From a virus (lineage: Duplodnaviria > Caudoviricetes): a stretch of 64,000 nucleotides of DNA. Positions 2,894 to 62,100 of the stretch are shown piece by piece. A model generated the notes under the pieces. It saw only the letters and a program-made list of their open reading frames with translations. It did no database searches and was not told where the DNA came from. The stretch is from positions 1 through 64,000 of the IMG/VR virus record IMGVR_UViG_3300010351_000784, one strand, 5' to 3'. Positions within the stretch are counted from its first letter, which is position 1. Each line of letters begins with the position of its first letter. A program made the position numbers and the translations under genes.

Positions 2894-3129
2894 TCGTCCT
2901 CCTTGTCTTCTGTCGTTAGACCCAGTAAGTCCATTGACATTTTAGTTTCTTTGAGCTGCGCATAGAAAATGTATGCTATAAGTACGCCGCCCCATGAGAA
3001 GTCCCAAAATCCAGCAAGATAGCCGAGGGAAACGACACAGAAGGGGACGCCGAATGCTATGATAAATTTGAGGATTGATGCAAAGAATAATAGCATGAAA
3101 TACGTTACCTTATCTACTTTCATAATCAA
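2890..3129 (-). CDS. Small membrane protein
   Basis: Two hydrophobic segments, coupled to ligase stop. Confidence 0.6.
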   Translation of the reverse strand: MIMKVDKVTYFMLLFFASILKFIIAFGVPFCVVSLGYLAGFWDFSWGGVLIAYIFYAQLKETKMSMDLLGLTTEDKEDE

Positions 3130-4226
3130 CCCTCCTTTAACTCAATCTTGAACAGAGAGATGAACTTCTTTGTCTCCAAAGAATCTACAGTGTTGGCAAG
3201 CTTACCATCGTACTCCGCGAAGTACAGGGGTCCCTTCTTACCAAGGTCCTGTGCGAACCACTTACGAGCCATTCTTGCGTCCTGCTCGTAAACATCCTTG
3301 TTGCTGTTCTTCCACTCTGCTACGTCCTGACGAACCTTCTCTAATACTACCTCAGAATGGTCAATCTGTCTCTTGACGTCGTCAAAAATAGGTTGATATT
3401 CCCGAAAATAGGATAGAAATTCATAATAGTCATTTGCACGAATTAAGTCTACAATACGCTCCAGAGTGATAACACCATTGTTTTTTGCACGGTGCATCTC
3501 GAAGTAAAGTAAAGTCTTAATCTTAACACGCTCACCATTCTCGTCACGAACAACGATACCCTCATGACCCTCTGGCATTTGCTCAACAAGGCGGCGGAAA
3601 CCAGCCTCATCGTTCATGTAGTAGAACTGTGGCTTAGGAATGCCTATTTCAGTATCTATTTCTTGTAAAGTAGACATATTTCTTGTCATTAAATGGAATA
3701 AACATGGTGTATTATATTCTATAACTATTCTATTAAAATTAGAACATCCTTCTAAACAATAAACATAGTTTTTGTTTAATCTCTCATAAGAGAAATTTGG
3801 ATAAAAAGATATTAAATAGTCAAATAATTCTTTAAAATTAGCAAATTTAATATTATCCATAGGCGCTTCTTCTGCGTCAAAGGTTGAACGAGTTTTTACG
3901 TGCCATTTATTATTGTACCAATAAAGGAAGAACAAAGTTCCATCTTCTTTGGATGTAGCCACAGCAGTATCCCAATCAATTTTTGCGGCATAAGCCTCAT
4001 CTATATTATAGAAACGCTTAAAACCTACGCATATTGGTTTAAAAGTCTCAACTTCAATAATTGTGCCGCGAGCCTCTTTTACTATCTCATTTGAAGGGTC
4101 AGATTCTATTTGAGAATAATTAAATAAGATTAAGTTGTCTTTTCTTTTTATCTTGAGCGAATAGGGTGGATTAGATAGCAATTCTTCCCAATTAGAATGA
4201 TTTTTCAAAAAATTTATTATTTTCAT
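3126..4226 (-). CDS. T4 Rnl1-like RNA ligase
   Basis: EARG, F(K)RFYN, motif I KEDGT, EGIVV, RVKIK. Confidence 0.85.
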   Translation of the reverse strand: MKIINFLKNHSNWEELLSNPPYSLKIKRKDNLILFNYSQIESDPSNEIVKEARGTIIEVETFKPICVGFKRFYNIDEAYAAKIDWDTAVATSKEDGTLFFLYWYNNKWHVKTRSTFDAEEAPMDNIKFANFKELFDYLISFYPNFSYERLNKNYVYCLEGCSNFNRIVIEYNTPCLFHLMTRNMSTLQEIDTEIGIPKPQFYYMNDEAGFRRLVEQMPEGHEGIVVRDENGERVKIKTLLYFEMHRAKNNGVITLERIVDLIRANDYYEFLSYFREYQPIFDDVKRQIDHSEVVLEKVRQDVAEWKNSNKDVYEQDARMARKWFAQDLGKKGPLYFAEYDGKLANTVDSLETKKFISLFKIELKEG

Positions 4227-5127
4227 ATAAAAACTCCTTTCTAATTACTTCATCTAAAGTAATTGTCTTTTTATTATAATAATCTATTTCAACTAATGGT
4301 ATATTATGTTTCTAACAATATTCTCTTTTTTTTGAATCTCTTTCTTTCTGTGAAAGAAATGCCATTTCTCCTCCGAAAAAGTTAACTGGCTAATAATGCT
4401 ATTTTCCTTGACATTCTATAAGATAAGTTAATTTATCATTAGAATTAAATACAGCAAAATCAAAGCGTAAGGGGCATCCATTTTCAGATAATAAATCAGA
4501 AAAAACAAACTCTTTTTCATATTGAATATTATTCTCTTTTAATATATTTTCTATCTATACTGAGCCATAAGACTAAGAAAGACAACCACAGGAGTGCGTA
4601 TCGCCAGTATTCAATTCTCTTGTTTTTACAATTACTTCATTGCCGCAATCGCAAAGACAAAGCCAAGCTGTTCTTAAAATTCCAGATTGTTCTCTAATTG
4701 AATCAACCTATTCTTTTGCGACGAGTCTTCCAAAACGTTTATCCTTTATATTATTACCAATGGCAGCCCTCACTTGTTCATTTCTAAAACATCCGCAAGA
4801 CTTCACTCTTCCGTTCTTTAAGTCATAAGCCTAAACAGTAGTAATATTTCCACACTCACATCTGCATATCCAATATGCATTTCCCCCCACTCTTGTCTAA
4901 TTTTTTTCAATAACGGTTAATCTATTAAAAGTTTGTGCAGTTAAATCCTCTAAATTATAAGCCATTCTTTTTGGAAAAATAAAATTAGGATATTTTGCTC
5001 TTATTGCTTTTATTGCTGAATCTGTTTTTCCAGCATAGCCCATTTTAATACAAAAATCCTTTTGATTATGAGTTTGATTGGCAAACTCCTAAAGTTCTTC
5101 TTCTGTAAAAGACTCCCATTTTTGCAT
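4192..5127 (-). CDS. Free-standing homing endonuclease (two CxCG...SCGC repeats + PD-(D/E)xK/DUF2726-like nuclease), read with TAG=Gln
   Basis: 312 codons open with TAG=Gln: WICRCECG..SCGC, WLCLCDCG..SCGC, LRFDFAV..IECQGKQHY..KREYC..NIPLVEI. Confidence 0.8.
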
Positions 5128-5186
5128 TTACATCACCTCTATTTATAAAGTAAAAAATGTATGCAAACGGTCCAGAAAATTAAGAC

Positions 5187-5240
5187 TTAAAGCTCACGCC
5201 AGTTATCATGTGCAAGAATGAACTCCTGAATCTTTAACAT
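5187..5240 (-). pseudogene. Orphan original N-terminus of the RNA ligase (MLKIQEFILAHDNWREL*)
   Basis: Aligns with MKIINFLKNHSNWEEL at the start of 3126..4226. Confidence 0.7.
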
Positions 5241-7087: not shown

Positions 7088-7163
7088 TTTCTATATATAT
7101 TATACCAAAAATTTTAGAAAAAGTAAAGGAAAAGGGGAGCAAAAATTTTTACTCCCCTTTGTT

Positions 7164-7457
7164 TTATCTCTTATCTTTTAAGGTATAACCATTCGCAGAG
7201 AAGCGAACTTTTGTGCCGTCCTTGAGAATAATTTCATATGCGTCTTCTTCATATACTCCGGGATGGGAAATAACTGAAGTAACCTCATCTGTGTTATAGT
7301 CCTCGCCGTTAATTGAAATGGTTTCATATGACGAGATTTCAATCATGAAATCTTTCTCATTATCGTTGGCTTTCCATTTAAGAGCGCCGACAAGTAAACC
7401 AACGGCAATCCAGAAAATAATAAAAACAGCAATAAATCCCTTTGCATCTTCGCTCAT
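7164..7457 (-). CDS. Membrane-anchored hypothetical protein
   Basis: N-terminal TM helix. Confidence 0.6.
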   Translation of the reverse strand: MSEDAKGFIAVFIIFWIAVGLLVGALKWKANDNEKDFMIEISSYETISINGEDYNTDEVTSVISHPGVYEEDAYEIILKDGTKVRFSANGYTLKDKR

Positions 7458-7506: not shown

Positions 7507-7947
7507 TTACATAGGCAGGATATCCTTCACCTGTCCAAATTCGCCGTGATTAAATCTCTCCGCAACTTCGCCGCGGCAATCGCTCTGGAGTCCCCAAGCG
7601 AAGCCGAATTCGTAAGATTCAAGGTCCTTATAGGTTGCACCAAGTTCGTACTCAATGCAGTCTCCAACCCACTTAATGAACTTCTCTCCCTCATCTGTCT
7701 GAGTAATATTTGAAAAGTCAATACGAAGTACAGACACATCTGCAATGTGACACATTCTAAGAAAACTGATAACAGTCTCCGGAGTGTCGCCGTCAAATAA
7801 TACCAAACCAGCGAAATATTCTCCTGCTTTTACAAGAGGAACGTTGCTGTTTGCATCGTGCTGATTGTGAATATATCCTACATAGTCCATAATGCAGAAA
7901 GTATCTAAGCCCCATCCTTTAAGTGTATCAAAATTAAAATTAGCCAT
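7507..7947 (-). CDS. Hypothetical protein
   Basis: ORF from MANFNF with GGAGG RBS. Confidence 0.6.
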   Translation of the reverse strand: MANFNFDTLKGWGLDTFCIMDYVGYIHNQHDANSNVPLVKAGEYFAGLVLFDGDTPETVISFLRMCHIADVSVLRIDFSNITQTDEGEKFIKWVGDCIEYELGATYKDLESYEFGFAWGLQSDCRGEVAERFNHGEFGQVKDILPM

Positions 7948-15452: not shown

Positions 15453-15529
15453 TGGTACTCCGAGTGGGACTCGAACCCGCAACACACCATGTTTAAGACG
15501 GATGCCTCTACCAATTGGATTACCGGAGC
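15453..15529 (-). tRNA. tRNA-Leu(TAA), short variable arm, encoded CCA
   Basis: GCTCCGG/TCGGAGT acceptor, loop CT-TAA-AC, GGTTCGAGTCC T arm, ACCA end. Confidence 0.85.
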
Positions 15530-52079: not shown

Positions 52080-52991
52080 ATGTTAAATATTGAAATGTCT
52101 GAGCGTATTAAAAAACTCAGAACAATAAATCATTTTAATTTTATTGGTCCTTTCTTTAATGATAAATAGAAGGACACAGATTTTTCTATTGGAAGCGCAA
52201 TCAGAGAAATAATTATAAGATATGATTATGAAATAAAACATAATTACACATTTGTAATTAAGTATGATAAGGATATTTATTCATCTTTGGCTTATCGCAT
52301 GATTTACAGCGCGGGTTCTGTTTTACAGAAAACTATTGATATTAAAATTCTTGGTGATATTGACACTCCAGAAGAGAAAGAAATTTTTAAGGATATCCCA
52401 GTAATAGGCTATCGTAAAGCACGAAAGCTGAAGAAGGTTGTCTTCATAACTGGTTATCATCCTATTTATAATGTAATTAACCTAAGCTCTTACTCTAAGA
52501 CTTTTATTGAAATCTTCAATCCAATTGAAAGATTTTTGCCTGATTCGCTTACAATGGCACAAGAGTTTTATCTTAAGCCGGAGAGTCAATTATGGAGTCT
52601 TTTTCTTGAAATGAGAGAGGATAATTACCTTGATTCAAATTGGGAGAGCGTAATTAATAAAACAATTCCAATTGTTGTTTTTAAACTTGAGGGTAATGAG
52701 AACGATTTCCCTGTTTTCAATTTCATCTTAAAGTCTTCAAAGGAAGGTAATATTCATATGTATATTGTTGAAAATGAAGAAGCAGCAAAATTCATTACCG
52801 ATAATTTAAGAATTTATGTTGACACTCGTAATGTTCCTTCTGAATTGAATATTATAAATAATGAAGAATATATAGATATGATAAGTAAATTTACACTTAA
52901 TTCAAAAATTGAAATTATAAATGAAATTCTTTTCTTTGATAAGAATACATTACCCGAGGAGGAGGATGAAAATGAAAATCATGGTCGTTAA
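52080..52991 (+). CDS. Hypothetical protein (303 aa, TAG=Gln)
   Basis: Promoter at 52018, AGGAG RBS. Confidence 0.7.
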
Positions 52992-54561
52992 TGGGCGCGG
53001 CGCGTCAGGTAAAGCTTTACCAAATTCAACTTTAATTCCTACACCAAATGGATATAAAAAGGTTGGAGAAATAAAGGTAGGAGATTTTCTTTTTGATAGA
53101 AAAGGAAATCCAACCAAAGTATTGGGCGTATTTCCATAGGGAGAAAAAGAAGTATATAAAGTTTATTTTAAAAATGGAAAAGTTGCAGAATGTTCTGAAG
53201 AACACTTATGGAATATACATAAACAAAGTTGGCATAGGGAGAAAAGTAAAAATAAATTTGAGCCATACACCTTAAAGCAAATTATTGAAGAAGGAGTTAA
53301 AGTTTCTGATAAAGCAGGATACCGATTTAAGATTCAAAACAATGAAGCAGTAAAATACCCTCATCAAAATTTAAAAATTCATCCTTATGTATTTGGCGTT
53401 TTTCTTGGTGATGGGTCTTGTTTAGAAAGACAATTAACTCTATCATCTAATGATATTGAGATTGTTGAAAGAGTTAATACCTTACTAAACGCAGGAGGGT
53501 ATGTTAAAAAAAGTAAATTTAATTATAACTGGTATTTTTTGAATAGAGAAAAAAAGAAAAATAAAAATAATACGGATGTTAAATATATTCAAACATTAGA
53601 TTTATTTAAAAATTATAGTGATAATATATGTCAATTAAGTTATAATAAAAGTATTCCAGATATTTATAAGTATAGCTCAATTGAACAAAGAATAGACTTA
53701 TTATAGGGATTGATGGATACTGATGGTTCAATTGATAAAAACGGAAATATTAAATTTACTTCAACAAGTAAAATATTGATATATGACGTTAAAGAAATTA
53801 TTGAATCATTGGGCTATTGGGCTACTATATATAAAGATACAAGAAATGATAAATATACTAATGAAATTTGTTATCAATTAGGCATACATATGAATAATAA
53901 AGAAAAGGAAAAATTATTCTTTTTATCAAGAAAAAAAGATGTAGCAAAAGCCTTGCCAATTTCTATATTTGATTATAATACAACCCAAATTATTAAAATT
54001 GAAAAAACAAATAAAAAAGAAGAAATGACTTGCTTTTTGGTTGATAATAAAGAACATTTATTTTTAATGAATAATTATATCGTCACTCACAATACTACAT
54101 TTGAAACAATGGTACAAAAGATTGCCGCGGCAAGAGGAAAGGAAGTAAAAGTCATTTCTACTATTACGTATGTAAAGGAAATTGCAAAGCTGTTTGGTTG
54201 GGATGGCGGTAAGACTCCAGAAGATAGACGATTCCTCTCAGACCTCAAAGATGCTCTAACTCGTTGGAAAGACCTTCCGTATCAGAAGGTTAAGAGCTTT
54301 ATTGAGACTTATGAACAAAGTGATACTGACCTCTTATTTATTGATTGCCGCGAGCCTGAAGAAATTGCAAGATTCGTTAATGATTATGGCGCGCTTACAA
54401 TTCTCGTTCAGCGTGGAGAGTTTGAATTGCTCGGCAACCATGCTGATGATAATGTTCTTAATTATCAGTACGATGTAGTTATTGATAATAACAGAGGGCT
54501 TGACGAGTTAATGCAGGAAGCCACTATTTTTGAAGAAACTTTTGTAGATGAAGAAGATTGA
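52972..54561 (+). CDS. P-loop (dNMP-kinase-like) protein with intein
   Basis: NGRGASGK|..|TTF, GWDGGK...RRFLSDLK, FIDCREPEEI. Confidence 0.8.
53014..54093 (+). mobile_element. Class 3-type intein (Ala1; W-C-T) in Walker A, 360 aa, two TAG=Gln
   Basis: ALPNST start, EHLW, LLQGLMDTDG, MTCFLV, IVTHN|T. Confidence 0.85.
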
Positions 54562-54616
54562 CTTTCTGAAAAAATTATTTTATAATAATAATAGAAAATG
54601 AAAAGGAGAAATGTGC

Positions 54617-54652
54617 ATGGAAATTATAATTGATGGTTTTGGAGATGATTAA
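54617..54652 (+). pseudogene. Orphan original N-terminus of DNA ligase (MEIIIDGFGDD*)
   Basis: Matches MKDIIIDGF at 54860; sits right behind the promoter and RBS. Confidence 0.65.
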
Positions 54653-54859
54653 ATGGCTTATGATTTAACGAATTAGCGATTTGGGAAATTAAAAGTTATA
54701 AAAAAATCAAAAAAGAAATCTAATAGAGGAATAATCTGGGAATGTCTTTGTGATTGCGGGAACATTTGTGAAGTTTGTTCTACTGATTTAAGAAAATAGG
54801 ATACTAAATCATGTGGATGTCTACAAAGAGACAAATTTATACATAAAGGAGAGTACATA
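54653..54859 (+). pseudogene. N-terminal remnant of homing endonuclease, in frame with ligase
   Basis: MAYDLTNQRFGKLKV..WECLCDCG..KSCGC. Confidence 0.7.
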
Positions 54860-55981
54860 ATGAAAGATATTATTATTGATGGTTTTAATTTTACAACTAT
54901 GGCAGCCCAAAAATATTACAGTTTTACATCTTCATTTAAAGGCGACAAAAAGACTAAAGCAAAAGAGTTAATTTTTTCAGATAGATATTTGGGCGCAAGA
55001 AAGATGGATGGAGCCTGGGCAATGATTATCAAGGACATGGACGGTAACTTCCATATGCGTAGCCGCACTGAGTCTGTTAATGGTGGCTATCAGGATAAGG
55101 CAGAATGGATTCCTCACATTTGTAAACAGCTTGCTGCAATTCCAAACGGTACTGCACTTGTTGGTGAGATTTACTTCCCTGACAATGAAGGTAGTCGTAA
55201 GATTACATCAGTACTGAACTGTCTCAAGGATAAGTGCCTTGAAAGACAGAAAAAGAATGGATATCTTCATTTTTACATTTTTGATATAATTGCTTGGAAT
55301 GGTAAGTCAATGATTGATATGGAATTTAAGGATAGAATTAAATATCTTAATCTTGAACTTTTTAAAGACCTTGCAAATGTTGAAACAGCAAACTATGTAA
55401 TGGGTGAAGACCTTTGGAATCTTTACAGTGAGATTATTGCCGCAGGTGGAGAAGGTATTGTAATCACTCGTGAGGATTGTCATTATCTTTGTGGTAAGAG
55501 AACGGCATGGATGACACTCAAGATGAAGAAAGAGTTGGAAGATACAATCGACGCTTTCATTGACGGTGATTACAAGACAGCAACTCGTCTTTACACCGGT
55601 AAGGAAATTGAGACTTGGACTTTCTGGGAAAATACAAAGACAGGTGAAAAGTTTAATACTTGCAAGTTCGATGATTTTTCAAATGGTGTTCCTGTTGAGC
55701 CAGTTACTAAGCCTTACTTCTATGGTTGGGCAAGTGCAATATCATTCTCTGTAATGAACGGAGATAAGCCTGTTCATATTACTTGGATATCAGGTATAAC
55801 TGATGAACTTAAGAAGGAAATCGTTACAAATCCTGACAAGTGGATTGGTAAGGTTGCAGAGCTTACTGCAATGGAAATTGAGCATATCGACAATGATTAC
55901 ACATTGCGTCATGGTAAAATTGAGAAATGGCGTAATGATAAGAATTCCACAGATTGCGAGTTCAGTCAGCTTACTAAGTAA
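54860..55981 (+). CDS. ATP-dependent DNA ligase
   Basis: KMDG, VGEIY, YIFDI, EGIVI, LKMKK, LRHG..WRNDK. Confidence 0.9.
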   Translation: MKDIIIDGFNFTTMAAQKYYSFTSSFKGDKKTKAKELIFSDRYLGARKMDGAWAMIIKDMDGNFHMRSRTESVNGGYQDKAEWIPHICKQLAAIPNGTALVGEIYFPDNEGSRKITSVLNCLKDKCLERQKKNGYLHFYIFDIIAWNGKSMIDMEFKDRIKYLNLELFKDLANVETANYVMGEDLWNLYSEIIAAGGEGIVITREDCHYLCGKRTAWMTLKMKKELEDTIDAFIDGDYKTATRLYTGKEIETWTFWENTKTGEKFNTCKFDDFSNGVPVEPVTKPYFYGWASAISFSVMNGDKPVHITWISGITDELKKEIVTNPDKWIGKVAELTAMEIEHIDNDYTLRHGKIEKWRNDKNSTDCEFSQLTK

Positions 55982-56070
55982 AAAATTGGACTATAAACAA
56001 TGTAAAACTACATTATATTAGTAGAGGTAGGTTCTATCCTACCTCATTTTTTTACAGTGAGGTGAAAGAA

Positions 56071-57111
56071 ATGCACGACGGTTATGTTTATGGAACATGG
56101 GTTCCTTACCCATATGACTTTGAAGCTCCATGTCAGACACCAAGTTCCGCCGCAAGATCTGCTCCAAAAGATTATTCTTATGAAGTAGACGAGCCTTGTG
56201 AAAGACCTGCGTCTGTTCCAGAGTTCAAACCGGACCTTGTAATTAAGCCTGAGTTTGGTCCGACTCCGAATCCGCCAGGAACTCAAGAGCCTGTTGAGAT
56301 GAAAATTCCTCGTATGCCATATCCGAAGAGACCAATTCTTGCGCCAATCCCTCCTCAGTTACCACCAAAGCATACACAGGTACAGCCTCGCTGTTTTACT
56401 TGTCGTCACTTTGAAATGTGTGGTTTTAAGAAGGACTATCTTAAGACCATAACTTTGGTATAGAACAGTCTCGGCGCACCACAAGCAAGTTATGAAATTA
56501 CAGATAAGTACATTATAATCCCAGACTTTGTTGGTTTCCCTCTTGCAAATGAGGATAAATACTTCCCTAAAGAGGTCGACTTTGACAACATAGACCATAA
56601 AGGTCATTTATTCCTTGCAAAATTCAACGGTATCAACTATGTAAATGTTGTATATCTTGAAGGTCATCACTATATTCTTATTCAATTAGAATATAGTAAG
56701 GATACTGAGCTTTATGAACTTAAGTCTTGTGAAGAAGCTTTCTATGGAGTTAAATATGAATTATCTGCAAAGTCTCTTGAAGAAATTCAGCTCGGACTTA
56801 TTGAATGGAGAGAGGTTATTGTAAATGCTCAAAAACCACCTCCGCCGCCAAGAAAAGATATTATCAATACAACACACTTTTCTGCAAATTTGAATTGTGA
56901 TATGTATGATTGGAACAAGGAAACTACTGAGCAGGCAATCGCAAGATTGGTAAAACAGTTCCCATATGGTATTCCAATTGATGAAGACGGTCACAGATTC
57001 TATCATGTAGCTACTTTCCATATTGCAAATGGAGAAGTTCCTTATTCTCCATACTTCCCACCTAAGCCGCCGAAACCTAAGAGACCACTTAAAAGATTTG
57101 GAGATATGTAA
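56071..57111 (+). CDS. Proline-rich Cys-containing protein (346 aa, TAG=Gln)
   Basis: Joins 56062-56463 and 56890-57111. Confidence 0.7.
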
Positions 57112-57506
57112 TGTCAAAAGGAGAAGAAAAAGTTGAAAAACTCCTACGCTCACATAATCTTTATTTCCAAAAAGAAGTTTCCTTTCCTGACTTAAAAAGT
57201 TTAAAAGGAAATTTATTAAGATTTGATTTTATCGTTTATGATAAAAATAATAAAATTATTTGCGCCATAGAGATAGATGGAGAACAACACTTTCATAGAG
57301 TTCCCCATTTTCAGAAAACTGTTTCTGAATTTAAACAGACTCAAGAGTGGGACAGACGTAAAAACGCTTACTGCTTAAGGAAGAAGATACCTCTGATAAG
57401 AGTACCTTATTGGGATTACAATAATCTCACTTTTGAGTCTTTATTTACTAACCCGGCGTATAAAGTTTCTTCGAAATACCATAATGATTTATTAAATCGG
57501 AGGTGA
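57111..57506 (+). CDS. DUF2726-like PD-(D/E)xK endonuclease
   Basis: SKGE, LRFDF, IEIDGEQH, KNAYC..IPLIRVPYW. Confidence 0.8.
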   Translation: MSKGEEKVEKLLRSHNLYFQKEVSFPDLKSLKGNLLRFDFIVYDKNNKIICAIEIDGEQHFHRVPHFQKTVSEFKQTQEWDRRKNAYCLRKKIPLIRVPYWDYNNLTFESLFTNPAYKVSSKYHNDLLNRR

Positions 57507-59137: not shown

Positions 59138-62100
59138 TATTGGAAGAAAGAATAAAAATTTCACAACTCAGTGGAATAAACTGTAGAACGAATTTGGTAC
59201 AGAGCTTGCCTATTTAAACGGCTTTGGTGATGACCAGCTTTCTCTCGGAGAATTTATTGACAATTTCGTTGACGAGCCAGTTGTAGCTGATAGCTCAATT
59301 GACTCAAACAGTAATGTAAGAAGAAAAGATATTGTAACCCTTCTTTCAGAAATGCCAAAGCCACACAGAAAGGTTATGGCTTTTCAGAAGATTTATTATG
59401 AAATGCAGAAGGAGTATGGTTTCAAGGCTGCTAATGAATGGCTTCGCCGCGAGTGGATGGGTGAAATGTAAACAACTTGCCCTTAGATTACTTTTCCCTT
59501 TATCAAGGGGGTTCATATTTAATATGAGCTAACGAGGAAGGCTTTTGCTAATCTCGTGGGAATTTATTTACGAAAAATCTTTTTTGTTTTGTCAAGGAGG
59601 TTTACTTATGAAAAAAGATATTTATGTAATTACCAATATAATTACTGGGATGCAATATGTGGGACAGAGTTCTAATGCTCAAAAAAGATTTCTTGCTCAT
59701 AAACAAGCTAAAGATGGGACAGTTTTTCATCAAGTTATTAGGAATTATGGTCCAGAAAATTTCTTTATAGAAGTATTAGAAGAACAAATCGAAAATTTTA
59801 ATGAAAGAGAAAAGTATTGGATTAAAAAATTGAATACCCTATACCCTACTGGATATAATATGACCAAAGGCGGAGAGGGGTATCCTCACTTAAATGGAGA
59901 GCTTTCTTATCAGAGTAAATTAACTAATGTTCAAGTGAACCAAATTATAGATTTACTCTTAAATTCTTCATTATCTCAAGAGCAAATAGGTGAAAAGTTT
60001 AATGTTACACAAGAAATTATTAGTAACATAAACAGAGGGAAAACATATTTTAGAACAAATTGTTCTTATCCTATTCGCTCCACAAAAGAAAAAGAACAAG
60101 AAGCATCTCAAATCATTTCTGAAATTTTAAATAATAAAAATTTAACTTTAAAACAAATCGCAAAAAATCATCCAAATTTTTCTTATTTTATGATAAAAGC
60201 AATTAACGAAGGAAAGAGTTACAGAAAAAAAGATTTAAAATATCCTCTTGCTATTGAAACTGGCAATAAATTAAAAGAAAATGATATTATTGCGATAAAA
60301 AGTTTCTTGGAGCATGATGATTTAACTATTATTGATATTGCAAATTTTTTTCACGTAAACAAGCAAGCCATAGAAAAAATTAACCAAGGAGAAGCTCATT
60401 TTCATCCCTCTTGGGATTATCCTCTTAGGAAGCATGCTGTTTACAAGAAAAATATTTCTATTGAGGATTTAAATCAAATTAAATTTTTGTTAAAAAATTC
60501 AGACCTCTCTTTTCGAGAAATTGCTCGGCGGATGAATATTAAGTCCCATAGCACTATTAGTAATATCAATAGTGGAAAAACTAAAGCATATTTTGAACCC
60601 AATGAAAATTATCCAATTCGTAAATAAAAGCCTGTAACGACTACCTCGTGAAGAGGACTACAAATGCTATTGATACGCATTTGGAAAGAGTAATTATTTG
60701 TCTTCAAAAGGCAAATCTAAAAAATAGTCTAATAATTGGAGTTGTATTTACATGACTCAGATACTGCAACCTTCAAGTCTTATTGTTTTGCTTACGATTT
60801 AAAGGATTTGGCTGAAAAGGGATTGTTTTTCCTTGGTGACACCTTTAATGCTAAGCCGCCAAAGCACTTGACAACTTTTGTTGACTTCGTAAAAGAGTAT
60901 ATCAACTTTGCAAGTAACAGAACTTCGGGTGAATTTGCTGCGCCCATATGTTTCTTTTCTGCTTACCAGCAGGGTCGCATTTGCGGCTAACGGGGGAGGC
61001 TAAGTGAATGAATAATTCATATGTTAGTCCCGTGGGAATCATTAGAAAAGATATCTACATTATTAAAAACAACATTAACACTAAAGTTTATATAGGACAA
61101 GCTTTAGATAGTAAAAAGAGATTTCAATCTCATTGTAAAGGCGATTATGATAATTCTTTAATTGATAAAACAATTCAAAAATACGGAAAAGAACATTTTT
61201 GGTTTGAAATTTTAGAGTCTCAAATTGAAAATTACAATGAAAGAGAAAAATATTGGATTAAATATTATAATTCAAAAAAGCCATTCGGATATAATATCCT
61301 TGATGGCGGAAATGAGCCTCCTATTTTTTATGGAGATGAACATTCTAATACTAAAATTTCAGATGAGGATGTGCTTAAACTAAAAATAGACTTGGCAACA
61401 ACTCAAATTTCTTTATCTCAGTTGGCAAAGAAATATAATATTTCTAAAAGACAAGTATTGAGAATAAATCAAGGCATTAGTCGAGCTTTATTAAATGAAA
61501 AGTATCCAATTAGGAAAAATTCTAATATAAATGGAAAAATAACAGAAGAAGATGTAGATAATATTATTGATATTCTCAAATACACTTATCGTTTTAATGG
61601 AGATATTGCAAGAGAATATGGAGTTGAAGTTCATGCTATTTCTAAAATAAACGCTGGAATTACACATCATAGGGATAATATTCAATATCCAATTAGAAAT
61701 TGGAAGAGCAGCGGTGTAATATTATTTACTTATGAACAAGTTTCTGATATTATTGACGCTTTATTAAACACAAAAGAAAGCATACAATCTTTAGCAAAAA
61801 AATATAATGTAGATAGAAGAGCCATTGAAGGAATTAACCGTGGCACTTCAAAAAAATATTTTCGTGAAGGACTGTCCTACCCATTACGAAAATTCTAATG
61901 AAGCCTGTATCGACTATCCACGCTAAGTGGAGTACTCTTGCTATTGGTACGTGAGGGGACAGAGAAACACTGCGACAAAGGTCGTAGGAAAATCCAGTCA
62001 GTCCCGATAGAAATATCGGAGTTCCGACGGCAGTCGGATTACCAAACCTTATTCCTTATATGTATTACTTCTGGAAAGAAGACCAGAAGAAGGCTTACTT

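Follow-up and report, generated by a model that had tools for sequence, protein, structure and literature searches.

A duplicated DNA ligase start in a TAG-recoded phage as the probable scar of a free-standing homing endonuclease gene

Why should a phage DNA ligase gene possess two starts, with part of an endonuclease gene lodged between them? The first-pass annotation described this arrangement in the 64,000-nt stretch of phage DNA analysed here (the window), and proposed that, where TAG is read as Gln, the endonuclease remnant provides the ligase with a 69-aa zinc-binding extension that is made only upon read-through. The coding content of the window agrees with TAG recoding: ORFs of at least 100 aa cover 69% of it under translation table 11 versus 88% with TAG as a sense codon, and individual ORFs on the minus strand, from 22.8 to 51.4 kb, contain up to 14 TAG codons. 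A search of the 94,474-nt record, whose estimated completeness is 57%, returned no suppressor tRNA; the only tRNA found was tRNA-Leu(taa). The features of the locus are the following.

54558..54586, plus strand: sigma-70-type promoter, TTGACT-N17-TATAAT, matching 11 of 12 consensus positions
54617..54652, plus strand: stub of the ligase, MEIIIDGFGDD and a stop, 11 codons; recipient ligase codons 1-8, then GDD and TAA from the insert
54642..55021, plus strand: foreign patch, comprising the ribosome-binding site (RBS) of the homing endonuclease gene (HEG), the remnant, the ligase RBS and ligase codons 1-54
54653..54859, plus strand: endonuclease remnant, 69 codons; matches phrog_374 'HNH endonuclease' (E 1.8e-20) and corresponds to residues 1-60 of P0122, a full-length form of the enzyme
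54825..54831, plus strand: deletion junction, one copy of the 7-nt direct repeat AAAGAGA; the lost 500 nt lay between two copies
54858..54862, plus strand: TAATG, the native HEG stop overlapping the ligase ATG; the stop is out of frame here, owing to the deletion
54860..55981, plus strand: ATP-dependent DNA ligase, 373 aa, PF01068 (E 8.7e-19)
56024..56055, plus strand: terminator-like hairpin and T-run, closing the ligase transcription unit

The promoter and RBS reported ahead of the stub are all found in place. The -35 hexamer of the TTGACT/TATAAT promoter overlaps the stop codon of the P-loop gene upstream, and the promoter is the top scorer among 8 promoter-like sites in 54300-56200; the number of such sites is itself unremarkable, since shuffled versions of the interval give a mean of 7.4. 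The stub has its RBS, GGAG, at 54605-54608, its ATG at 54617 (not 54618) and its TAA at 54650-54652, and an alternative in-frame ATG lies at 54611, two codons 5' of the stub ATG. The second start, MKDIIIDGF, likewise exists with a GGAG of its own (54848-54851), 8 nt ahead of ATG 54860. The ligase ORF that follows contains no TAG, and its motif I (K48-M-D-G) is encoded by 55001-55012. As for the AT-rich beginning of the ligase gene that had also been pointed out (about 150 nt), GC content is indeed lower in 54860-55021 than in the rest of the gene (0.32 versus 0.38), but the difference is modest, and the sharp signal is instead the divergence of this segment from L031, the closest relative.

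Between the two starts, the ATG of the remnant at 54653 directly adjoins the stub stop (TAAATG). Its frame contains two TAG codons (54674-54676 and 54797-54799) and neither TAA nor TGA, and runs into the ligase ATG at 54860. Among homologous modules, the first TAG aligns to Gln in 189 of 317, in keeping with TAG as a Gln codon, and the second mostly to Gly (320 of 411, with Gln in 6). Codons 1-60 form one complete zinc module, while the last 9 or so are the 3' end of the HEG read in the wrong frame. The remnant shares zinc-module motifs with a 311-aa endonuclease ORF at 4192-5127 on the minus strand; these motifs and the phrog_374 match bear out the assignment of both to the same endonuclease family, and no Pfam match to the remnant was obtained at E≤1. 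A search of viral contigs found 17 loci with close relatives of the remnant, the best of them 56% identical, and in none of the 17 does the relative lie beside a ligase.

The relationship to a complete enzyme is clear from P0122, a 235-aa protein-database entry. Its residues 1-60 match 54653-54832 at 59 of 60 positions (98%), and its last 12 residues (224-235) correspond to 54822-54857, read in the +1 frame. P0122 finds phrog_559 (2e-31), phrog_374 (3e-29) and phrog_9084 'homing endonuclease' (7e-26), while DUF2726 scores E 0.0087, under the curated cut-off; no PDB sequence matches it at E≤1. Its structure model (mean pLDDT 86; 88-96 over residues 1-50) consists of two zinc modules and a Vsr/I-Bth0305I-like nuclease domain. 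A Foldseek search of the model against the PDB gave no match at E≤0.001. When residues 124-235 of the model are compared with the I-Bth0305I catalytic domain (3r3p_B), Z is 9.0 and rmsd 2.8 Å with 90 of 98 residues aligned; with Vsr (1cw0_A), Z is 8.4. The catalytic domain of P0122 is thus predicted from the model to have the restriction-endonuclease-like fold of the Vsr-like/I-Bth0305I-like (EDxHD) PD-(D/E)XK nucleases, for which EDxHD is the catalytic motif. The window copy lacks that domain; it is the remnant of a free-standing HEG whose nuclease domain has been deleted, rather than a gene for modules and nuclease in itself. Otherwise its decay amounts to that single deletion and nothing further, as the start, the RBS, every cysteine and a complete module are retained. 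We also considered whether the remnant and a 131-aa nuclease-only ORF at 57111-57506 might be two halves split by the ligase, and rejected this, as synteny of the ORF is preserved in all the relatives compared.

To place the two starts, the locus was compared with 25 related loci that include the ligase start (11 of 12 viral and 14 of 16 metagenome loci, several being the same contig in both collections). All 25 have one uninterrupted ligase start. The endonuclease is absent from 23 of them; L009 and L041 have an orthologue (57% identical over 231 aa, with one in-frame stop) between the promoter and the ligase, and no stub. In this comparison, named in the first-pass annotation as the refuting test, the IIIDGF duplication without an endonuclease was seen in none of the 25 loci. 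The first 25 nt of the stub (54617-54641) are identical at 25 of 25 positions to the ligase start of L001-L003 and L031, in which the reading frame then continues as ligase. Over the 84 nt of 54558-54641, mismatches number 1 against L001, 2 against L002 and 5 against L031, and in these three relatives the stretch continues directly into the ligase without an insert. Homology to the endonuclease-free relatives breaks off at 54641 and restarts at 54866. From there the ligase differs from L031 at 49 of 156 positions (31%) in 54866-55021, versus 47 of 960 (4.9%) in 55022-55981 (Fisher p 3.6e-20); the final mismatch of the patch is at 55021 and the following one at 55084, and 93-95% identity to L031 extends beyond the patch to 58796. 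Given this sharp step, we conclude that 54642-55021 is a foreign patch ending 9 nt past ligase motif I, with ligase codons 1-54 of foreign type and the remainder of the gene 95% identical to L031. The ligase start is thus duplicated around the remnant, as had been noted from the letters alone, with the upstream copy identical to that of close relatives and the downstream copy divergent. The mismatch step at 55021/55022, together with a shorter tract in other sequencing runs (X3, X4 and X6; see below), is evidence of co-conversion of flanking host sequence. The foreign ligase start could not be traced to a donor among the 25 loci, all of which are 65-72% identical to it over 54866-55021.

Contigs from other public runs show three alleles of the locus. 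In two other wastewater runs, X3 record 2 has 1156 nt for the window span 54559-55214 (656 nt), and X4 record 6 has 827 nt for 54602-54928 (327 nt). Both are 500 nt longer than the window, with the stub included, and in each of them both flanks overlap on 54825-54831. The P0122 gene with its stop measures 708 nt, which is the 208 nt of the window plus 500. From the record lengths and P0122, we infer that the extra 500 nt comprise the nuclease domain in full together with the second zinc module; by the same record lengths, a full-length HEG would exist at the ligase site in both X3 and X4. X4 also holds an endonuclease-free allele, since record 7 covers 54602-54641 and then continues as uninterrupted ligase, so that empty and occupied sites are found in one run. 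The deletion junction is bridged as in the window by X5 record 12 (54708-55051, no differences) and X6 record 13 (54332-54901), and at least 3 studies have yielded the deleted allele, a spread compatible with neutrality and also with some advantage. X5 is an RNA library with contigs over 54526-55051; given possible DNA carry-over and no visible transcript ends, these contigs speak for presence only. X3 record 2 differs from the window at 44 positions, and among those listed all fall in 54902-54991 and none in 54559-54831. The foreign tract ends at about 54901 in X3, X4 and X6, three of the four other runs, versus about 55021 in the window. The deleted allele therefore occurs with a long tract (window, X5) or a short one (X6), and later recombination or recurrent deletion is needed to account for this. 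A deletion between the two AAAGGAGA motifs of the old and new ribosome-binding sites was considered as the route of nuclease loss and rejected, the junction being at 54825-54831.

Very probably, a free-standing HEG invaded the ligase gene at its 5' end, co-converted the flank and then decayed, and the region is its scar. The same order of elements could in principle have arisen had the ligase 5' end been duplicated locally in tandem, with the endonuclease inserted between the copies at a later time and no foreign ligase DNA involved; the codons for IIIDGF and the ribosome-binding motif AAGGAGA do each occur twice, 242 nt apart. However, only the upstream copy resembles that of the close relatives, the downstream copy, together with some 150 nt that follow it, being 31% diverged from L031. 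Furthermore, the duplication is never seen on its own among the 25 loci, and L009 and L041 have the orthologous HEG upstream of the ligase without any duplication. We therefore regard such an origin as very unlikely. Still less credible is an assembly chimera. The metagenomic origin of the virus record, at 57% completeness, might raise that suspicion, but it is refuted by contigs obtained independently in other runs and studies, which span these junctions as well (X6 record 13 and X5 record 12, with the X3 and X4 records covering the stub and the HEG start).

Whether the zinc module serves the ligase is a separate matter, and here the earlier claim survives in part. With TAG read as Gln, remnant and ligase do share a frame, as stated: 69 codons interrupted by TAGs only. 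As an evolved feature, the extension fares less well. The fusion frame exists only because the 500-nt deletion (3x166+2) shifted the frame and removed the HEG stop; in the intact allele, the TAA of the HEG overlaps the ligase ATG and no fusion is made. The extension is conserved in none of the 25 related loci, and no fusion of a zinc module to a ligase appears among the 120 listed of 322 protein-database matches. Could the module nevertheless be a retained, TAG-gated part of the ligase, an extra DNA-binding domain made only late and on its way to domestication? The remnant is in frame without TAA or TGA, its start, RBS and one confidently folded complete module are intact, its first TAG stands at a position where Gln prevails among homologous modules (189 of 317), and the deleted allele occurs in contigs of several independent studies; moreover, zinc DNA-binding domains of HEG origin have been co-opted elsewhere, CapR being one described example (PMC10448857). 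Nevertheless, one frameshifting deletion yields this frame match with a one-in-three chance, the ligase still has an RBS and an ATG to itself, the intact allele has a stop of its own, related loci and the listed database matches are devoid of the fusion, and the remnant bears no sign of selection after the deletion. We thus consider a retained extension improbable, and the zinc-module fusion is most likely incidental, a leftover of the deletion and not a designed feature. By its reading frame, the deletion allele could give rise to a 442-aa isoform where TAG means Gln, and this isoform may be made late in infection. A model of this fusion (mean pLDDT 62) has pLDDT below 50 over residues 1-70, because its alignment contained only ligases, and is hence silent on whether the ligase tolerates the extension.

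Returning to the HEG scar, the following course of events would account for the locus. The HEG would originally have resided between the promoter and the ligase gene of a divergent donor phage, the position in which L009 and L041 still have it. Its enzyme would have cut an endonuclease-free ligase allele near the 5' end. Repair on the right side by homologous recombination would have produced the co-conversion tract to about 55021, while the left side was presumably joined illegitimately right after codon 8, leaving the recipient start as a stub and duplicating the IIIDGF codons. A later loss of 500 nt between the 7-nt direct repeats would have removed the second zinc module and the nuclease, and shifted the frame. 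The ligase would now be translated from the RBS and ATG that arrived with the insert. Ribosomes starting on the stub or the remnant would terminate at remnant codon 8 where TAG is a stop; where it is Gln, the same ribosomes would continue into the 442-aa zinc-module-ligase fusion, a by-product of the deletion.

Several of these steps have counterparts in T4, with descriptions of HEG cassettes that lack a promoter, of UAAUGA coupling, and of one-sided homing in which illegitimate repair takes place at microhomology (PMC2988022). As in the free-standing HEGs treated there (seg, mob; 'intronless homing'), the cassette is promoter-less and uses the host gene promoter, its stop and start codons overlap those of neighbouring ORFs (TAAATG and TAATG here, UAAUGA for mobE), and presence/absence polymorphism between close relatives, flank co-conversion and HEG decay are all seen. 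Unlike mobE in nrdA, as reported in the same source, the insert lies 8 codons into the coding region without splitting the protein into working halves, and brings with it an entire new start. A further difference is the nuclease, Vsr/I-Bth0305I-like with zinc modules rather than GIY-YIG or HNH (PMC2988022), and its gene carries in-frame TAGs in a TAG-recoded phage.

A second parallel is provided by fungal mitochondria, where endonuclease ORFs (mORFs) carry a foreign duplicate of a gene end and form gene hybrids, as described for atp6 of Allomyces macrogynus and for atp6, atp9, cox2 and nad3 of Glomus (PMC3630166). There, as here, the endonuclease ORF lies within the host gene beside a duplicated gene end, the ORF-borne copy is foreign (64-81% identity, versus about 69% here) and the displaced native copy matches that of relatives (91-98%, versus 25/25 nt here). 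However, according to that account it is the 3' end that is replaced, often with the ORF fused in phase, whereas in this phage the 5' end is replaced, and the cassette must therefore bring an RBS and a start codon (PMC3630166).

A further likeness lies within the window itself, in the RNA ligase case (3126-5240), and the DNA ligase locus is the second such endonuclease case in this TAG-recoded phage. Both involve the same endonuclease family and the same order of stub, endonuclease and gene restart. At the RNA ligase, the native stub has 17 codons and the 311-aa endonuclease is intact, with 9 TAG codons and a 3' end that overlaps the restarted gene by 35 nt; in contrast, the DNA ligase copy is short of 500 nt and fused in frame to the ligase. 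Recoded in-frame stops have been proposed by Borges et al. to delay a homing endonuclease to late infection (10.1101/2021.08.26.457843). The present locus resembles the case presented there in having an endonuclease gene with in-frame recoded stops inside an early transcription unit, but that gene is intron-encoded with TGA, whereas this one is free-standing with TAG, and the TAGs of the window copy now gate a fusion protein and not a nuclease (10.1101/2021.08.26.457843).

With two instances in the window, at the RNA ligase and the DNA ligase, it is tempting to ask whether this zinc-module endonuclease family routinely colonises the first codons of phage genes as a harmless cassette with a TAG-silenced nuclease, its leftover module perhaps heading for co-option. 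We consider this a speculative and rather doubtful generalization. If it is true, the cassette would take the promoter and start of its host gene by way of a translated stub and return the ribosome to the replacement start that it carries; the in-frame TAGs would silence the nuclease until the phage switches its code; and the surviving zinc module, ligase-fused and made late, may become a co-opted DNA-binding domain. For annotation, the locus calls for caution, as a gene caller using code 15 would give a 'zinc-finger ligase' of 442 aa, most likely the chance product of a single deletion.

Taken together, our results place the life cycle of a HEG at the population level on one locus, with an empty site, an intact invader, a decayed invader and two co-conversion tract lengths, in an uncultured TAG-recoded wastewater phage. 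Our literature searches returned no report of a HEG with a replacement start at phage gene 5' ends, whereas gene 3' ends are documented in fungal mitochondria. Neither intron nor intein is needed for a HEG to reside in a coding region if it carries a replacement gene start.

Every part named in the first-pass annotation (promoter, RBS, stub, endonuclease remnant and a ligase start with its own GGAG) is found at 54558-54860, laid out on the plus strand as follows.

54558-54586, plus strand: near-consensus promoter
54617-54652, plus strand: stub MEIIIDGFGDD, 11 codons, opened by GGAG and ATG (ATG 54617, TAA 54650-54652)
54653-54859, plus strand: remnant ORF, 69 codons, with its ATG directly after the stub's TAA and its own GGAG at 54641-54644
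54860-55981, plus strand: ATP-dependent DNA ligase, ATG 54860, 373 aa, no TAG (PF01068, E 8.7e-19; phrog_114, E 2.8e-29)
56024: hairpin terminator downstream of the ligase

The ligase's GGAG lies 8 nt 5' of its ATG. The remnant runs in frame into ATG 54860 when TAG is read, as had been claimed, with TAG at codons 8 and 49 as its only stops. A virus record of 94,474 nt, derived from a metagenome and with an estimated completeness of 57%, has the window as its first 64 kb. Under table 11, 69% of the window falls in ORFs of 100 aa or more; with TAG as sense, 88% does. TAG counts reach 14 per ORF on the minus strand from 22.8 to 51.4 kb, and are 0-1 per gene in the plus-strand block around the ligase. 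The 94,474-nt record (~57% complete) contains no suppressor tRNA for TAG, tRNA-Leu(taa) (15453-15529) being its sole tRNA.

For the remnant, the family match is phrog_374 ('HNH endonuclease'; E 1.8e-20); Pfam gives none. A protein-collection search for longer relatives returned P0122, a 235-aa database protein with 98% identity to the remnant, which bears out its assignment to an endonuclease family. Residues 1-60 of P0122 correspond to 54653-54832 (59/60 identical), while residues 224-235 correspond to 54822-54857 in the +1 frame, which ends at a TAA (54858-54860) overlapping the ligase ATG. In P0122, a C-terminal domain follows two zinc modules; the protein matches phrog_559 (2e-31) and phrog_9084 ('homing endonuclease'; 7e-26). 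In its AlphaFold model (mean pLDDT 86), residues 124-235 align with the catalytic domain of the homing endonuclease I-Bth0305I (Z 9.0, rmsd 2.8 Å over 90 residues) and with Vsr (Z 8.4).

Scans with the ligase protein gave 12 viral and 16 metagenome loci, several contigs, to judge from their identical lengths, being common to both collections. The ligase start is spanned by 25 of these loci; it is single and uninterrupted in all 25, and a duplicated start occurs in none. Hence duplication of IIIDGF in orthologues lacking the endonuclease, which would speak against the proposed origin, is absent (0/25). Over the 84 nt from the promoter through the RBS to the eighth codon, the window differs from the related loci L001, L002 and L031 at 1, 2 and 5 positions, respectively, and in all three this stretch leads directly into the ligase. 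The intergenic space between the upstream P-loop gene and the ligase is variable among the relatives examined: four have a 75-112-aa ORF 5' of the promoter (L002 3625-3942, L031 2607-2942, L001 831-1058, L033 530-868), and L004 has a 93-aa ORF 3' of it (3730-4011). The window has neither type of ORF. Its ligase promoter sequence recurs with ~80% identity at three places in the 9-kb L004 locus (3666-3709, 7108-7176 and 7816-7866), which suggests a promoter type common to the gene block.

Homology to the relatives breaks off at 54641 and returns at 54866. Against L031, the closest relative (94% protein identity), there are 49 mismatches in 156 nt at 54866-55021, versus 47 in the 960 nt beyond (Fisher p 3.6e-20); the dense tract has its last mismatch at 55021, the next one follows at 55084, and identity stays at 93-95% on to 58796. 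Together, the homology gap, the mismatch contrast and the identity beyond mark 54642-55021 as a foreign DNA patch within an otherwise L031-like region. It ends 9 nt past ligase motif I (K48-M-D-G, 55001-55012).

In two of the related loci, L009 and L041, an orthologous endonuclease gene (57% identity to P0122 over 231 aa) lies between promoter and ligase without a stub, which is the layout expected of a donor.

1850-2548 of L009 (same in L041): endonuclease gene upstream of the ligase, with a single in-frame stop

This stop replaces the first cysteine of the first SCGC motif, and reflects either early decay or a sequencing error. Within the window, the stub-endonuclease-restart layout is also seen at the RNA ligase gene, with an intact 311-aa family member (4192-5127, minus strand); the DNA ligase is thus a second case, as had been proposed.

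Other mobile elements and family fragments are present in the window. The upstream P-loop gene (ORF 52972-54561) contains, just past its GRGASGK motif, an intein (53017-54090) with a LAGLIDADG domain (PF14528, E 4.4e-15) that is absent from all relatives compared; as the intein carries two in-frame TAGs, the host protein is incomplete unless TAG is read. The ORF at 59545-60627, a TAG-free GIY-YIG endonuclease of 360 aa with HTH domains, is probably another mobile endonuclease gene, and the segment around it (59471-60744) is missing in L002, L003, L008 and L010. The 131-aa ORF at 57111-57506 (phrog_559, E 3.7e-26) encodes only a nuclease domain of the P0122 kind (32-39% identity), without a zinc module; it is syntenic in all relatives compared, and is possibly a long-resident or domesticated derivative. 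A short minus-strand ORF at ~13812 starts with the N-terminal motif of the zinc module (…LTGQDFGRLKVL…), has none of the cysteine motifs, and could represent a third family fragment.

The stretch also occurs in 11 studies, in runs from wastewater and activated sludge, and alleles were compared on contigs from four of these runs (X3-X6). X3 record 2 and X4 record 6 span the stub and endonuclease start; across 54825-54831, each exceeds the window by 500 nt, and its two sides overlap on these 7 nt, marking a direct repeat. Adding 500 to the window's 208 nt gives 708 nt, exactly what P0122 and its stop need. By this length match and P0122, both records are taken as the full-length allele. X5 record 12 (0 differences over 54708-55051) and X6 record 13 cross the junction exactly like the window, representing the deleted form, and X4 record 7 is an empty site, running from 54602-54641 into an uninterrupted ligase. 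There are 44 differences between X3 record 2 and the window; since all those listed fall within 54902-54991, the foreign patch of this X3 allele ends near 54901, not 55021. X4 and X6 have tracts of similar length.

Of 317 homologous modules, 189 have Gln at the position of the first remnant TAG. The TAGs of the intact allele would delay the nuclease until TAG is read; such delay by recoded stops has been proposed for an intron endonuclease of a TGA-recoded phage (10.1101/2021.08.26.457843). In the window allele, ribosomes would end after seven residues or continue into the ligase depending on these TAGs, solely because the deletion took out the endonuclease's own stop. No zinc-module-ligase fusion is found in related loci, nor in the database matches listed (120 of 322). 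Therefore, of the TAG-dependent 69-aa ligase extension suggested earlier, the in-frame reading stands, but an evolved feature is not supported; the predicted fusion is most likely incidental.

Taken together, the ligase was invaded at codon 8/9, with a foreign replacement start and a co-conversion boundary, and a 500-nt deletion between 7-nt repeats shifted the frame. The endonuclease would have cut endonuclease-free ligase alleles near the 5' end; the right side would have been repaired by homology, and the left joined illegitimately, leaving the recipient's first eight codons in place. Each individual part belongs to a known kind. For T4, one-sided homing in which ends are joined illegitimately at microhomology has been described, as have endonuclease cassettes lacking a promoter and overlaps of stop and start codons (PMC2988022); fungal mitochondrial genes provide endonuclease ORFs with a foreign duplicate of the 3' gene end (PMC3630166). 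We found no report of such a replacement gene end at a phage gene's 5' end in open-access papers and bioRxiv. Unlike the fungal mitochondrial cases described (PMC3630166), where the 3' end is replaced, it is the 5' end of a phage ligase that is replaced here.
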